Shown here: piece by piece, positions 58,605-64,000 of the stretch | Layout: each line of letters starts with the position of its first letter | Numbering within the stretch: position 1 is the stretch's first letter | Origin: an uncultured Gammaproteobacteria bacterium | GTDB lineage: Bacteria; Pseudomonadota; Gammaproteobacteria; Ga0077536 | DNA: 64,000 nt | Direction: 5' to 3' | Assembly: GCA_963976285.1 (NCBI GenBank) | Contig: CAXBJY010000008.1 | Location: 14,414-78,413 of the forward strand | Program-made: the position numbers and the translations under genes | Notes under the pieces: model-generated | Told to the model about the DNA's origin: nothing | The model's database searches: none | Seen by the model: only the letters and a program-made list of their open reading frames with translations

Positions 58605-58844
58605 TTGTCGCGTAATAATCGTTACCTCCCGATACTAATGGGCTTTGGATCTTTTGCGCTGGCCATATGGCTTGCTATGGGTCATGTATCGTGGTGGAAA
58701 GCTATTCTCGGCGCCCTACTGCTTATGTTTGGTTGGGGTTCATTAAGAACGGGAATTAGCGCTTCGGATGAGGAAATTGAAGAATTGACCTCGCCGAAAC
58801 CTTTATCTGAAAGTACGAGGAAAAAATTCGAAGAACGATTTTGA
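58605..58844 (+). CDS. small membrane protein (79 aa, 2 predicted TM helices, charged C-terminal tail)
   Basis: TTG start with AGGAG SD 8 nt upstream (internal ATG at 58638 lacks SD). MSRNNRYLPILMGFGSFALAIWLAMGHVSWWKAILGALLLMFGWGSL…. Confidence 0.5.
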   Translation: MSRNNRYLPILMGFGSFALAIWLAMGHVSWWKAILGALLLMFGWGSLRTGISASDEEIEELTSPKPLSESTRKKFEERF

Positions 58845-58860
58845 AACGAATGCAGCAGAG

Positions 58861-59151
58861 ATGAATCCAGCATTATTGATAACAGCGGCCGGCCCTATTC
58901 TTGGGGCAATCGGTCTGTATGGGGGAATCGACTGGCTATTTTGGTCAGGAATAGTCATAGCACTACTAGCGTTGTTTCTGAATTTGGCTTCCGGAATATT
59001 GAAAGCACCTGTACTGCCCGGACTGTGCGTAGTCGTGGGTGCGGCGGCGATAACCCCCTGGTATCACGGTGCCGGAGTCGGGCTTCTAGTTTGGACGGCG
59101 TTGGAAACCGCCGGAGAAATTGTGGGCCTTCGCAAAGAAGGCAGACTATAA
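58861..59151 (+). CDS. small membrane protein (96 aa, 3 predicted TM helices)
   Basis: MNPALLITAAGPILGAIGLYGGIDWLFWSGIVIALLALFLNLASGIL…; 16-nt gap from the upstream small TM gene (same cassette). Confidence 0.5.
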   Translation: MNPALLITAAGPILGAIGLYGGIDWLFWSGIVIALLALFLNLASGILKAPVLPGLCVVVGAAAITPWYHGAGVGLLVWTALETAGEIVGLRKEGRL

Positions 59152-59158
59152 ACGTGCC

Positions 59159-59268
59159 GCCTAAAAAACGCTGCAGTCCAACCCATTACAGTGCGCTTTT
59201 CCAGCGTACCTTCGGATTTTCCCGCTTCCAAAGCGCACTGCAACGGGCTGCATCGCGCGGCGTTAGAT
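59159..59268. repeat. attC-like imperfect palindromic element 1 (GCCTAAA…CAGTGCGCTTT…AAAGCGCACTG…GTTAGAT)
   Basis: Perfect 11-bp core inverted repeat 59189-59199/59230-59240. Outer arms GCCTAAAAAACGCTGCAG vs CTGCATCGCGCGGCGTTAGAT also partly complementary; ends in the GTTAGAT core 14 nt before the next ATG. Confidence 0.45.
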
Positions 59269-59281
59269 TACGCGCACACCT

Positions 59282-61042
59282 ATGATTCTGCCTGACGTGA
59301 CACGCGTCCTTGAATCCTTTACGGCGTCGGGCGAAGCTGAGGCTATCTCTATAACAGGCGATTGGGGCGTAGGGAAAACGTACTACTGGAGGTCATTCGT
59401 TGGTAGCTTGAGTCAAAGAAACGACCTTCAATTCACAAAGTATTCGTATGTATCTTTATTCGGGCTGTCATCCCTGCCCGAAGTACGTGACGCGATATTT
59501 GACAATGCAGTTCCTTCCGAAGAGATTTCGGCTGAGCCGTCGCTCTCTTCTTTCTTCGGAAATCTAGCTGCGATTACCGATTCCGGAGGCGCGCTTTTCG
59601 CAATCAAGGGCGTTTTCTCAAGAGCTCGGAAGCACTTAGGAACTATAGAGAAGGTGCCCGCAATTAGCAGGGTTTCTCCATTTCTACGAGCCGCGTCCTA
59701 CTTCGCCATATCGAACTATTTGGTCTGCCTAGATGATGTTGAACGCAAAGGTGAAGGTCTCTCCGGCCGCGACCTCTATGGATTAATTTCCCACCTTAAA
59801 GAGCGGCGGAATTGCAAGGTTGTGATAATCCTAAATTCCGATTCACTAGATGAATCGGAGCGTAGCGAGTATGACCAGTTTCGGGAAAAAGTATTTGATA
59901 TCGAGATGTCGTTCCGTCCTACCAAAGCAGACTGCATCAGCTTGGTTTTTGGAGATGGCTCAGATGTATCGGTGAAAGCCATCCGCTACTGCGGCGAACT
60001 TGGAATTAACAACATTCGGGTCCTGAAACGGATCCATCGAAATTTGAACTATCTGCTCCCGTTCACGGAAGGTCTAGACCCCCTACTAGAAGAACAGATC
60101 TTCCATTCAACGGTGTTACTAACATGGAGTTACAACAGCCGACAAGCCGACGCACCGGATTACGATTTCGTGAAGAAACTTGGCGTTGCGGATATGTTTT
60201 CGCTAGACGTCGAAACAACCGAGGACGACACCGAAGAAAAGGAATGGCGAGACCGACTTTGGAACTACAAATACACGTCATCGGATGAGATTGATTTAGA
60301 AATCTGTAGATTCCTCGAAAATGGGTACTTAGATAGCGATCTGTTTCGCACCGTGCTTAACCAAAAAAACAAAGAACTTACCCAGACTCATACCAGGAAT
60401 AAGTTTGAGGCGGCATGGCGTTTATTTCACGATTCGTTTAATGATAATGAAGCGGAGTTTATTGAAGAGCTGTCGAGGGCGTTTCATGAAAGCGCGAGAT
60501 GGATTAGCCGCGCTAATGTCGACGCCGCCGTCCGGATATTGCGCGACCTAGACCGATCTGAGCTAGCAGACAAATTCATCGCCCATTGGATCGACGTGCA
60601 ATCTAGAGAAAACGCCTCATCTCTAACAGCAGAGCCAGATCATTTTGATCGGGAAATAAGAGACGAATCGTTGCGTGTCGCGATCGAGAACGCTGCCGAT
60701 CAAAACATGCCGATCCCGACTCTCGATGAGATTGTTCCTAGGATTGCCGGTAATGAAGGTTGGGGACAAAAAGATGAGGAGTTCTTGTCAACTGCGTCCG
60801 TTGACGATTTCTACTATTACTTCAAAAGGACAGAAGATCGAAATCTGACGACTTACGTAAGGACATGTCTGAAATTTGGCCAGTTCCTCAATCCAACTGG
60901 GCCGATGCGAACAATATCGGGGAAAGCGATAGAAGCGCTCAGGCGGATAGAAAGTGAATCCAAGCTCAATGAACTGCGCATTCGTAAATTCGGGTTAGGC
61001 ACCAAACCGGATGACGCCCGCGTCGACAAACAATTGGATTAA
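59282..61042 (+). CDS. KAP-family P-loop NTPase (586 aa)
   Basis: N-terminal Walker A ITGDWGVGKTYYW and Walker B LVCLDDVER, characteristic of KAP NTPases; large helical C-terminal region. Confidence 0.65.
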   Translation: MILPDVTRVLESFTASGEAEAISITGDWGVGKTYYWRSFVGSLSQRNDLQFTKYSYVSLFGLSSLPEVRDAIFDNAVPSEEISAEPSLSSFFGNLAAITDSGGALFAIKGVFSRARKHLGTIEKVPAISRVSPFLRAASYFAISNYLVCLDDVERKGEGLSGRDLYGLISHLKERRNCKVVIILNSDSLDESERSEYDQFREKVFDIEMSFRPTKADCISLVFGDGSDVSVKAIRYCGELGINNIRVLKRIHRNLNYLLPFTEGLDPLLEEQIFHSTVLLTWSYNSRQADAPDYDFVKKLGVADMFSLDVETTEDDTEEKEWRDRLWNYKYTSSDEIDLEICRFLENGYLDSDLFRTVLNQKNKELTQTHTRNKFEAAWRLFHDSFNDNEAEFIEELSRAFHESARWISRANVDAAVRILRDLDRSELADKFIAHWIDVQSRENASSLTAEPDHFDREIRDESLRVAIENAADQNMPIPTLDEIVPRIAGNEGWGQKDEEFLSTASVDDFYYYFKRTEDRNLTTYVRTCLKFGQFLNPTGPMRTISGKAIEALRRIESESKLNELRIRKFGLGTKPDDARVDKQLD

Positions 61043-61134
61043 GCGGTCGTGTTTCAGCGCGCTTCCTTCCGCCGGATCCGCATTTTCACCTACACGAAAC
61101 GCGCTGAAACACGCCGATTATCCAAGCGTTAAGT
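61028..61134. repeat. attC-like imperfect palindromic element 2 (arms TTGGATTAAGCGGTCGTGTTTCAGCGCGC / GCGCGCTGAAACACGCCGATTATCCAAGC, ending in GTTAAGT)
   Basis: Perfect 14-bp core inverted repeat 61048-61061/61100-61113 extending to ~28 bp with bulges. Left arm overlaps the KAP gene stop codon. Inner GCGGATCCGC palindrome. GTTAAGT core at 61128-61134. Confidence 0.5.
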
Positions 61135-61152
61135 TTCTTTTGAGATTGAAAT

Positions 61153-62250
61153 ATGCGAGTTCTAGTTTTTGACACGAACGCCTTTGTCCAAGACTTGGGG
61201 CTAGAGGGTCATGCATTTCAGCTGCTGCTCTTGCATTTAAATGTCGTGACTGACCTAGTCGCGTTTCCGATTGTGGTACTACAAGAAACCTCGAATAAGT
61301 ATGAGGAGTTCCTGCGCAAGGTCGTCTCTGATGCGAAGAAAGCGTCTGAGCGATTCGAAAGACTTACTGGAACGGCACTAGAGCCGCCCGACCCAAGAAT
61401 AGTTGTTGAATCTATTTCTCAGTACCGCGCAAAGCTCATGTCGAAGTTTGGCGGCCTCGCTGAAGCATTCCCCTATCCGTCTATAGATCACGAATCTGTC
61501 GTTCAAAGGGCCATCCTTCGAAGGCGTCCTTTTCAAGATTCCGGGGCCGGGTACAGAGACACGATAATCTGGGAGTCGATTCTAGAAATTGCCGACAAGC
61601 CGGACATCGATTCCATTATTTTTATTACTAACAATTCGAAAGACTTCCTGGCCGAAGACCGGCTGGCACCAGACCTTATAGAAGACTTGAGAGAGCGGGG
61701 GCACCCAGACTCCTTAATTCGCACTTACGGGACGGTGAAAGCCCTCGTTGATGCTGAGATCCTGCCAAGCATCGAACAATTTAGTGAAGTAGCAACGCTC
61801 ATAGAAGAACGCAATATTCCCGGCATTGATTTCGACGCTTGGTTGCAAGATGCCTTGTTCGATTGCGTGCCGGCGGCCGATGCAGCGCGGGCGATAGCAG
61901 GGATAGCCCCCGGTGATGCCGATACAGAGCTATCTGAAATCTATGAAATCAAAGAATTCAAGGTAGAGCATGGCTATCCGCTCCCAAACGACGAGCACTA
62001 TCTAATTGTGTCCGTATTCGCAGGCGTTGGCGTGAACGTTTGCGCCAGCTGGGTGCAATACGGTGATTCGCTCGCGGTCACCGAATTGTTTGACTGTGAG
62101 GGAACGGGCCAACCAGCGCCTTACGCGTGTGTATATGCCGGAGAAGTTATTTGGATCACTTTATCCCTCGTGGTTCATTCATTAGTTCCGTTTACCTGGT
62201 CTGTTGAAATCATTTCCGTTGAGTCGACAGGAAGCGAGTCGGAAACCTAA
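61153..62250 (+). CDS. PIN-like nuclease domain protein with ~185-aa C-terminal domain of unknown function (365 aa)
   Basis: MRVLVFDTNAFVQD (first PIN acidic residue), …VVLQETSNKY… (Glu), …IIFITNNSKDF… (distal Asp pair) within the first ~180 aa. Confidence 0.55.
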   Translation: MRVLVFDTNAFVQDLGLEGHAFQLLLLHLNVVTDLVAFPIVVLQETSNKYEEFLRKVVSDAKKASERFERLTGTALEPPDPRIVVESISQYRAKLMSKFGGLAEAFPYPSIDHESVVQRAILRRRPFQDSGAGYRDTIIWESILEIADKPDIDSIIFITNNSKDFLAEDRLAPDLIEDLRERGHPDSLIRTYGTVKALVDAEILPSIEQFSEVATLIEERNIPGIDFDAWLQDALFDCVPAADAARAIAGIAPGDADTELSEIYEIKEFKVEHGYPLPNDEHYLIVSVFAGVGVNVCASWVQYGDSLAVTELFDCEGTGQPAPYACVYAGEVIWITLSLVVHSLVPFTWSVEIISVESTGSESET

Positions 62251-62261
62251 TAAATGGCTCA

Positions 62262-62343
62262 ATATGCCGCGTTACAGCGCGCTTCCCTCAGGCGGATCCG
62301 TATTTTCGCCTCCCCAAAGCGCGCCGAAATACGCAGGTTATCT
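62262..62343. repeat. attC-like imperfect palindromic element 3 (…CGCGTTACAGCGCGCTTCCCTCAGGCGGATCCGTATTTTCGCC…GCGCGCCGAAATACGCAG-GTTATCT)
   Basis: About 75% identical to element 2 over the central region (CAGCGCGCTTCC…GGCGGATCCG…ATTTTC…GCGCGC…GAAA). Ends with GTTATCT (imperfect core) 15 nt before the next start. Confidence 0.45.
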
Positions 62344-62357
62344 GAGCCTTAGAACTC

Positions 62358-63134
62358 TTGGCGGAAATTATGGCGCAATCAAACCGGAAGCAATACGGCG
62401 AAGCACAGAACGTCGCGCTGACTTCACAGGTCGGCGGCGTTTGCCCGCGCTGCGACGAGCCGCTTTTCTACAAGAAAATGGGCAAAAGTTTTAAAGCGTA
62501 TGAGGTAGCGCACATCTACCCCCTAAACCCCACCCCCGAAGAAATCGAACACCTTAAGGACGAGCCTAGACTTAGCCAAGACGTGAATGATGAAGATAAC
62601 CTGATTCCTCTCTGCAAGAGCTGTCATGGCAAGTTCGATAAGCCTCGGACAGCTGAAGAGTATCGGCAACTCGTCGAACTCAAGAAGCGCTACATCGCGC
62701 GTTCAGGCCAAGAGATATTGTGGTCTTCGCATCATCTTGAGTCTGAGATCCGCAGTGTCATCGAGGCGCTTTATGAGGAACACTTCATCGGGGCTTCAAC
62801 CGCTGTAATTGAGTACGAGCCAGCTACAATCGATGAAAAGGTCGATGACTCGATAACGAGACCTACCGTCCGAAAGATCAAGAATAACGTCAGTGATTAC
62901 TTCACGTTAATCAAGACTCATTTTTCTGAAATTGACAAGACCAATCCGAATTTTTCAGACATAGTGTCGCTACAGGTCAAGACATACTTTCTGAAGCAGC
63001 AACAGTTGGGGGTAGATAAACAAGCGATCTTTGACAATTTAGTTTCCTGGGTGCGTGTAAAAACTAAACCCCGAAGTATTGATGCTGCCGAGATATTGGT
63101 TTCGTTTTTCATCCAGAATTGCGAGGTGTTTTGA
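62358..63134 (+). CDS. HNH-family nuclease domain protein (258 aa) with C-terminal helical domain
   Basis: TTG start (internal ATG at 62370). CPRCDEP…AHIYPLNP…NLIPLCKSCHGKFDK = CxxC…H…N…CxxCH HNH zinc-finger nuclease signature. Confidence 0.65.
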   Translation: MAEIMAQSNRKQYGEAQNVALTSQVGGVCPRCDEPLFYKKMGKSFKAYEVAHIYPLNPTPEEIEHLKDEPRLSQDVNDEDNLIPLCKSCHGKFDKPRTAEEYRQLVELKKRYIARSGQEILWSSHHLESEIRSVIEALYEEHFIGASTAVIEYEPATIDEKVDDSITRPTVRKIKNNVSDYFTLIKTHFSEIDKTNPNFSDIVSLQVKTYFLKQQQLGVDKQAIFDNLVSWVRVKTKPRSIDAAEILVSFFIQNCEVF

Positions 63135-63355
63135 TGATTGTTCCCACCAAGTTCACCTCCCTAGACAAGAGCGCCTTAGGCAAATCACCAATCGTGTTGC
63201 AAGCTTTCGATCGTCCGGTTTCGGCTCACAGCTTATACAAACTCGTAGACCGCCAATTCGAGGACGTTGGCGAATTCTTGTTTACGCTTGATGTTCTGTA
63301 TGTCCTGGGATCGATTCGCCTCGACACAGCTACAGGGATGGTAGAAAAATGCTGA
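63134..63355 (+). CDS. 73-aa hypothetical protein, translationally coupled between the HNH and ATPase genes
   Basis: ATG overlaps the TGA of the HNH gene (TGATG). Its own stop overlaps the ATPase start by 7 nt. MIVPTKFTSLDKSALGKSPIVLQAFDRPVSAHSLYKLVDRQFEDVGEFLFTLDVLYVLGSIRLDTATGMVEKC. Confidence 0.45.
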   Translation: MIVPTKFTSLDKSALGKSPIVLQAFDRPVSAHSLYKLVDRQFEDVGEFLFTLDVLYVLGSIRLDTATGMVEKC

Positions 63356-64000
63356 AAGCAATCTCGTGTATAAAATTTAGCCAGGAGACGATCAGTTTCA
63401 AACCTGGCCTGAACGTTGTTGTTGGCGATGATCTGGCGACAAATTCGATCGGTAAATCTACTTTGCTGATGGTAGTAGATTTTGTCATGGGCGGATCTGA
63501 TTTCCTTGTTCACAACAACGATGTTGTGGCTGAGCTCGGCGATCATGCCTACCGCGCTGCGTTCGATTTTGTCGGCGAATCTTACTTTTTTCGCCGTGAT
63601 ACAGCGACGCCTGATGTAGTGGACCTTTGCGATAAGTCGTGGAAGGTCATTGAGGCGCTCACCATTCAGGACTATCGAGAGCGTTTAACTACCCTGTATG
63701 GCCTGAATGACGTCGGCCTAAGCTTTCGGCAGATCTGTGCTCCGTTTTCGAGAATCTGGGGAAAGCAGAACCTAAACCCTGCAAGGCCGTTAGATGCGCA
63801 TCTCAAACAATCGGCCGCAGATTCGCTGTATCTAGCGCTCAAGTTATTCCAGAAATATGACGAAGTGGAAGATCTAGAGGGGGCGCTGAAAAGCGTTCAA
63901 AACAAGGCGAGTGCACTAAATTCCGCGTTTCGCGAACAGGTTGTTCCGAGGATCACCAAGAGGAAATATAACGACAACTCTAGAAACATTTCGGAGCTCT
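63349..64000 (+). CDS. ABC/SMC-type (AAA_15/23-like) ATPase, N-terminal 217 aa only (runs off window end)
   Basis: Own translation: MLKAISCIKFSQETISFKPGLNVVVGDDLATNSIGKSTLLMVVDFVMGG… = N-terminal Walker A region typical of defense-associated ABC ATPases. No stop before position 64000, so absent from the ORF track. Confidence 0.6.
   Translation, partial: MLKAISCIKFSQETISFKPGLNVVVGDDLATNSIGKSTLLMVVDFVMGGSDFLVHNNDVVAELGDHAYRAAFDFVGESYFFRRDTATPDVVDLCDKSWKVIEALTIQDYRERLTTLYGLNDVGLSFRQICAPFSRIWGKQNLNPARPLDAHLKQSAADSLYLALKLFQKYDEVEDLEGALKSVQNKASALNSAFREQVVPRITKRKYNDNSRNISEL

Follow-up and report, generated by a model that had tools for sequence, protein, structure and literature searches.

We analysed a 64,000-nucleotide stretch of DNA from an uncultured Gammaproteobacteria bacterium (GTDB lineage Ga0077536; GenBank assembly GCA_963976285.1, contig CAXBJY010000008.1, positions 14,414 to 78,413 of the forward strand), which we call the window, and focus here on one gene near its end. 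The gene encodes a 365 amino acid (aa) protein of the PIN_12 (DUF4935) family, lies between two attC-like repeats and is a candidate for a defence nuclease that works as a single protein. The gene, its two domains and the inferred cassette that carries it are as follows.

61153..62250, + strand: PIN_12 (DUF4935) family gene, ATG start, 365 aa, stop codon included in the coordinates
61153..61662, + strand: N-terminal PIN domain of the VapC group (residues 1-170; D7, E45, D136, N161 and D164), in which strand 2 is followed by a long helical insert at ~residues 40-98
61663..62247, + strand: family-specific C-terminal domain, residues 171-365, modelled as helices and then a long, curved antiparallel sheet of four strands (a cone of the NTF2/Tim44/cystatin type)
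61025..61134, + strand: upstream attC-like site, 110 nt; R'' GACAAAC (61025-61031, inside the last part of the preceding gene), AATTG as spacer, a bulged imperfect palindrome, AAGC as second spacer, and R' GTTAAGT (61128-61134)
61129..62348, + strand: inferred gene cassette, 1220 nt, one gene, starting at the TT after the G of GTTAAGT and ending with base 1 of the R' box that follows
62245..62354, + strand: downstream attC-like site, 110 nt; R'' ACCTAAT over the stop codon, R' CTTAGAA, degenerate R box

The open reading frame (ORF) at 61153..62250 is a real gene under purifying selection. Several TARA Oceans samples contain the identical protein, on 8 contigs in total, and full-length relatives are available at 86%, 47% and 32% identity. 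The ratio of nonsynonymous to synonymous substitution rates (dN/dS) is 0.23 in each half of the gene when it is compared with the 86% homolog; taken with the full-length relatives, this value indicates that the gene is real and that both domains are constrained. The 365-aa protein has no match in NCBIfam and no significant match in PHROGs, a collection that holds no relatives of it. Word-indexed homolog searches (with the protein or a profile) yield 8-9 relatives; exhaustive search and a genome scan reach more.

The Pfam family PIN_12 (PF16289, formerly DUF4935) matches residues 4-165 with an E-value of 6e-23 and 82.5 bits, against a curated gathering threshold of 32 bits, and the match spans model positions 1-172 of 172. 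An earlier note on this DNA, made from the letters alone, had read a PIN acidic constellation in the N-terminal part, and its three motifs are located at residues 5-9 (VFDTN), 44-48 (QETSN) and 158-165 (ITNNSKDF). That reading is borne out by an alignment of 177 non-redundant relatives: D7 is kept in 95% of them (the remaining 5% at this position are gaps), E45 in 99%, D136 in 100% and D164 in 95%, while N161 is kept in 90% and replaced by D in most of the others; G133, W140, P126 and F165 are likewise conserved. The homologs thus give no sign of a degenerate active site, and since the site is intact and strongly constrained, catalysis matters. Analogy with PIN domains of the VapC group points to RNA as the most likely substrate.

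DUF4935 has been described as a bacterial family of ~350 aa with an N-terminal VapC-group PIN domain in which acidic residues are conserved and a helical insert follows S2; no homologs could be detected for its C-terminal alpha/beta part (201-380), and most of its genes are mono-cistronic (Matelska et al. 2017, NAR 45:6995, PMC5499597). The four residues D7, E45, D136 and D164 agree with the 4-5 conserved PIN acidic residues given by the same authors, and the long helical hairpin (~residues 40-98) after strand 2 agrees with their description. The window protein also shares with the family its length class, the full model match, the C-terminal alpha/beta region, the mono-cistronic gene and a bacterial distribution with rare archaeal members. 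It is a typical PIN_12 member with no essential difference; the window copy is an attC-bounded cassette. When it is compared with the VapC toxins of type II VapBC systems, on the other hand, the window protein is 2.5 times larger, has the helical insert and an extra domain, and comes without a VapB-type antitoxin gene. What is new beyond the 2017 description is the fold assignment of the C-terminal domain and its exclusivity, the contrast in rate between the two domains, and the environmental setting, an array with three defence-type cassettes that resembles a cluster of attC sites lacking integron-integrases (CALIN).

The earlier note had also pointed to a large, cysteine-containing C-terminal domain without a recognised motif. 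A Pfam scan of this domain indeed gives no match even at E<=10, but the cysteines are not conserved in the alignment of the 177 relatives (nor is any polar residue of the domain), and the domain is confidently modelled as a member of the NTF2/Tim44/cystatin-like fold class, without a close solved relative. The folds that were named for comparison are those of NTF2, SnoaL/ketosteroid isomerase, the Tim44 C-terminal domain/mL45, VirB8 and the CaMKII association domain (all of the NTF2-like superfamily), and the cystatin fold; a fold of this kind by itself reveals no function. The domain is specific to the family. A HMMER profile of residues 171-365, compared with 1.84 billion representative proteins, has 125 matches at E<=1e-3, nearly all of them in proteins of 340-390 aa that are matched at about residues 171-360 (we take the shorter ones as fragments). 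The only four non-PIN matches (P0047, P0049, P0110 and P0132) were rejected as compositional matches: they are large repetitive surface proteins in which a short stretch is matched 5-6 times. Among the 1.84 billion proteins the C-terminal domain is therefore exclusive to the PIN_12 architecture. Iterated profile hidden Markov models (HMMs) find it in 63 out of 73 full-length PIN_12 genes from species genomes.

Mean pairwise identity is 17-19% in the C-terminal domain and 36.5% in the PIN core, i.e. the C-terminal domain diverges about twice as fast. The domain occurs in this family only, is co-inherited, has a well-defined predicted structure and is hypervariable, and it has no conserved residues that look catalytic. 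Such a pattern would suit a module for recognition, regulation or oligomerisation, and not an enzyme. It may act as a sensor or auto-inhibitor, as the earlier note had proposed. In one relative (L095:4884-5974, from Pseudoalteromonas sp. CuT4-3, NZ_CP142031.1) the annotation has a separate ORF for each domain, one for a PIN protein of 170 aa and, adjacent to it, one for a hypothetical protein of 191 aa; the split falls exactly on the domain boundary and is either natural or a sign of a disrupted gene.

The family is sparsely but widely distributed. A motif scan of 185,579 species genomes (one per species; one motif used) gives at least 119 confirmed loci, out of which 80 were retained for analysis. 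These 80 loci span many phyla (including Bacteroidota, Actinomycetota, Chloroflexota, Pseudomonadota, Planctomycetota and Acidobacteriota, plus one archaeon), and the ORF is almost always 340-400 aa long. Relatives are found on 23 plasmids: for example, the relative on a Rhodococcus plasmid adjoins a type I restriction enzyme and recombinases, and the one on an Escherichia albertii plasmid adjoins a PAPS reductase with a ParB-N protein. No relatives are found in 50,697 phage records.

No neighbour gene is conserved around the PIN_12 genes. In an all-against-all BLASTP comparison of three genes per side at the 80 loci, no neighbour family is common to more than four loci, and Pfam and PADLOC scans of 150 adjacent genes give no family that appears more than twice. 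Intergenic distances around PIN_12 genes are mostly above 50 nt. Neighbours are a mix of housekeeping genes and genes of defence systems or mobile elements, the latter including BrxL (BREX), AbiJ, PD-T4-6-like kinases, TnsD, TraQ and group II intron reverse transcriptases. No small neighbour gene is conserved in the 80 loci, and no VapB-type antitoxin gene is adjacent to or overlaps the PIN_12 gene, either there or in the window. The 24 nt before the ATG (from the attC R' box) hold no ORF, and the antisense strand of the gene holds no ORF above chance: the longest is 63 aa (33 aa from ATG), which is shorter than in 96-99% of synonymous shuffles. The statement of the earlier note that no small antitoxin-like ORF is adjacent holds, and the overlapping antitoxin on the other strand that it named as a refutation is not found. 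The gene is a stand-alone, single-protein unit without a conserved partner.

The attC-like sites were assigned by reading the sequence, from the complementarity of the arms and from folding compared with shuffles. The upstream site has 18-nt arms that are 94% complementary, its bottom strand is predicted to fold at -25 kcal/mol (z -4.3) with bulged bases, and its R' box GTTAAGT ends 19 nt ahead of the ATG. Its layout and its AATTG and AAGC spacers closely resemble the canonical attC of aadA7. The downstream site is 75% identical to the upstream one and is predicted to fold at -25 kcal/mol (z -3.4); the two repeat copies are spaced by 1220 nt. The inferred ends of the cassette are placed at the established crossover position of integron recombination. 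As the earlier note had seen, the flanks of the gene are attC-like repeats. Of the two 110-nt hairpins the upstream one is canonical and the downstream one has a degenerate R box: the own attC of the PIN_12 cassette has AAT/CTT instead of AAC/GTT at the crossover point, while the neighbouring sites retain GTT. Since the AAC/GTT pair has been lost at this point, the cassette may no longer be excisable, and it looks like a decaying, possibly immobile one.

The gene of the 47% homolog (L090) was considered as a second cassette and rejected; it has an R''-like GCCTAAC at the stop codon, but its flanks fold no better than shuffles (z 0.2-0.3) and so give no evidence for a cassette. A scan of a metagenome collection for further copies of the same attC type returns only the same TARA locus.

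The cassette is part of a longer array. GC content drops sharply at ~58200, from the ~65% of the host to 45-52%, which marks the start of the array, and from ~58.2 kb on all genes are on the + strand. The other features of the array are as follows.

58605-59151, + strand: two small ORFs, 79 and 96 aa, without Pfam match, one unit ending in the next site
~59163-59268, + strand: attC-like hairpin that ends in GTTAGAT
59282-61042, + strand: KAP-like P-loop NTPase, 586 aa, with a weak Pfam KAP_NTPase match and a match to the PADLOC single-gene candidate PDC-S49 (E=1.6e-21); its own attC-bounded cassette, directly upstream of the PIN_12 cassette
62358-64000, + strand, on into L001:11218-13816: ABC-3C system, a complete three-gene unit (HNH-CTD11 effector, MC7 middle component, DUF2326-type ABC ATPase), cut through by the end of the window
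L001:13815-13915: attC-like hairpin after the ABC-3C unit (z -3.6)

Four hairpin repeats of ~105-110 nt thus separate the units, and all of them fold far better than shuffles (z -3.4 to -5.1). Three unrelated defence-type units (the KAP-like NTPase, PIN_12 and ABC-3C) stand side by side. A scan for sigma-70-like promoters finds none on the + strand in the PIN_12 gene or ahead of it; promoter-like sites are rare in 58.1-64 kb as a whole (two, with 5.9 expected by chance), and the sole + strand site is downstream, at 63321-63350. Past the end of the window there is a CSD-DUF1294 gene (L001:14106-14717) and then an IS3-family transposase gene (HTH_Tnp_1 + rve; L001:14986-16097). The transposase is missing at the same position in L003, i.e. 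this insertion is polymorphic between samples.

One member of the PIN_12 family has a known phenotype. Cosus (gene brc24) came from a screen of unknown-function cassettes of mobile integrons; this class 1 integron cassette has a single gene, whose 382-aa product contains a PIN12 domain, and Escherichia coli cells that carry it are completely resistant to T7; no escape mutants could be obtained (Kieffer et al., bioRxiv 10.1101/2024.07.02.601719). The same study predicts Cosus to be hexameric, reports that it is costly under strong expression, and finds homologs in Marinobacter cassette arrays, near Vibrio attC sites and also outside integrons. We recovered the Cosus protein (382 aa) from plasmid pKAZ2, and it matches PIN_12 at residues 11-180 with an E-value of 2.4e-36 (compared with 6e-23 for the window protein); judging from where this match lies, D14 of Cosus is the equivalent of D7 in the window protein. 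The two proteins are alike in length (382 and 365 aa) and in having a C-terminal half of ~195 aa; each is encoded by a single gene followed by an attC (in the window, an attC-like site) whose R'' box overlaps the stop codon, and both groups occur in cassette arrays of marine gammaproteobacteria and outside integrons too. They differ at the first catalytic aspartate, where Cosus has IDN and the window protein DTN, and where Cosus has GYRDxxIW the window protein has EFPDAIAL. Judged by sequence comparison, the window protein is a distant relative of Cosus, with homology that is detectable in the PIN domain only. Searches of PDB sequences with the profiles of both groups find no solved relative of either.

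A link to Cosus through the C-terminal domain was also considered and rejected, since none was found by BLASTP, by iterated HMMs or by hhalign in local, greedy or global mode. One source labels a Cosus homolog as 'NTF2 superfamily protein', a hint that the C-terminal fold may be shared by Cosus and the window protein. Some close relatives of Cosus (P0231, P0235, P0241 and P0248; 76% identity, 462-467 aa) bear an N-terminal cold-shock domain (PF00313), which would fit a single-stranded nucleic-acid target for that branch.

The reading we favour, with a probability of about 0.6, is that the PIN_12 protein is a single-protein defence nuclease, i.e. a one-protein anti-phage (or anti-mobile-element) system in a promoterless single-gene cassette. 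The N-terminal VapC-type PIN domain would be the effector, a metal-dependent endonuclease that most probably acts on RNA. Control would lie with the NTF2-like, fast-evolving C-terminal domain, which would either sense a cue of infection or assemble the protein into an oligomer in which the nuclease is restrained, and the gene would be carried in a co-oriented array of attC-bounded defence cassettes. We favour this reading because of the single-gene organisation, the locations on plasmids and in a low-GC island, its structure as a cassette and the defence-type cassettes on either side, and because one family member, Cosus, has a demonstrated anti-phage phenotype, which drops more than 1e5-fold when the residue equivalent to D7 is mutated (D14A). 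The earlier note had likewise suggested a single-protein PIN nuclease, plausibly a defence effector, and the absence of a partner in the 80 loci, the conserved catalytic residues and the Cosus precedent (bioRxiv 10.1101/2024.07.02.601719) all speak for it. For the window protein itself we infer the defence activity, the substrate and the role of the C-terminal domain.

Several observations weigh against this reading. The defence phenotype is known for Cosus alone, which is a distant member outside the subfamily of the window protein. BLASTP between the two proteins is not significant (E=0.14); hhalign of the family profiles (50 and 20 sequences) gives a probability of 34% (E=4e-4) and aligns the PIN domain only; a forced alignment shows colinear C-terminal halves, but with an hhalign probability of just 2%; and iterated HMM searches from either group never reach the other. 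For Cosus itself, the mutants T12A, D14A and D96A (the sole strong reducers reported among 11 mutants) lower protection by more than 1e5-fold and leave ~100-fold, and its authors propose that Cosus also acts in another way, by interfering with the injection of the genome (bioRxiv 10.1101/2024.07.02.601719); given this residual protection and the suggested second activity, defence through the nuclease is not fully established even for Cosus. Housekeeping genes adjoin many of the relatives, and PADLOC has no model that matches the 365-aa protein. As to the cassette, tblastn with an IntI1 sequence finds no integron integrase in the 64-kb window or the 10 kb downstream, and the called genes of L001 include no member of the Phage_integrase family. 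The array looks CALIN-like over the part that was searched, the 64-kb window and 10 kb downstream of it on a 148-kb TARA scaffold (ERZ2783031 scaffold_268). Because the R box of the downstream attC is mutated and no integrase was found, mobility of the cassette and its expression from a Pc promoter are uncertain.

Among the alternatives, the one that survives best is that the protein is an orphan or self-contained toxin that serves addiction to, or stabilisation of, the cassette array, with the C-terminal domain as a fused cis-acting antitoxin (an auto-inhibitor) instead of a phage sensor. This is compatible with the toxicity of Cosus, but we consider it unlikely: addiction needs a labile antitoxin that is made separately, and a fused domain offers no obvious route to post-segregational killing; moreover, PIN_12 genes are mostly lone genes outside integrons, and Cosus, the one tested member, is clearly anti-phage. 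It is more improbable still that the protein is an endonuclease for housekeeping or stress-related RNA processing (maturation or decay, similar to Nob1/Fcf1) that lies in a variable region by chance. The housekeeping genes next to many relatives would suit such a role; a sporadic distribution (at least 119 confirmed loci in the 185,579 species genomes), the occurrence on plasmids, the low-GC island, the attC-like bounds, the variable neighbourhoods and the hypervariable C-terminal domain all stand against it. Very little speaks for the PIN_12 protein as part of a multi-gene system with a neighbouring cassette (for example as the effector of the KAP-like NTPase, or as an alternative to the ABC-3C effector): all genes are co-oriented and closely spaced, and ABC-3C effectors have the superficially similar layout of a nuclease with a C-terminal coupling domain, but attC-like sites lie between the genes, the C-terminal domain matches no Pfam ABC-3C C-terminal domain (CTD) family at E<=10, the ABC-3C locus already owns its HNH-CTD11 effector, and neither a KAP nor an ABC-3C neighbour recurs in the 80 homologous loci.

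Returning to the single-protein defence nuclease, a broader and distinctly tentative proposal concerns the main PIN_12 clade, which contains the window gene and excludes Cosus. Members of this clade might be pan-phylum, single-protein abortive-infection or defence nucleases, in which the C-terminal domain directly senses a phage protein or a small molecule and gates the PIN active site. If so, this would be a type of sensor not yet described for defence nucleases, and the single observation made for Cosus would extend to hundreds of genes that current defence-finding tools miss.

For the family, the analysis indicates that PIN_12/DUF4935 is much broader and more diverse than Cosus, its one tested member. 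Its C-terminal half gains a predicted fold (NTF2/Tim44-like), and the exclusivity and fast evolution of this half mark it as a module that is likely to set specificity or to regulate. The gene escapes recognition by PADLOC 2.0, so cassettes of this kind are currently missed in inventories of defence systems. With this window, the recent finding that phage-defence genes are stored in integron cassettes would gain an example that is environmental and chromosomal.
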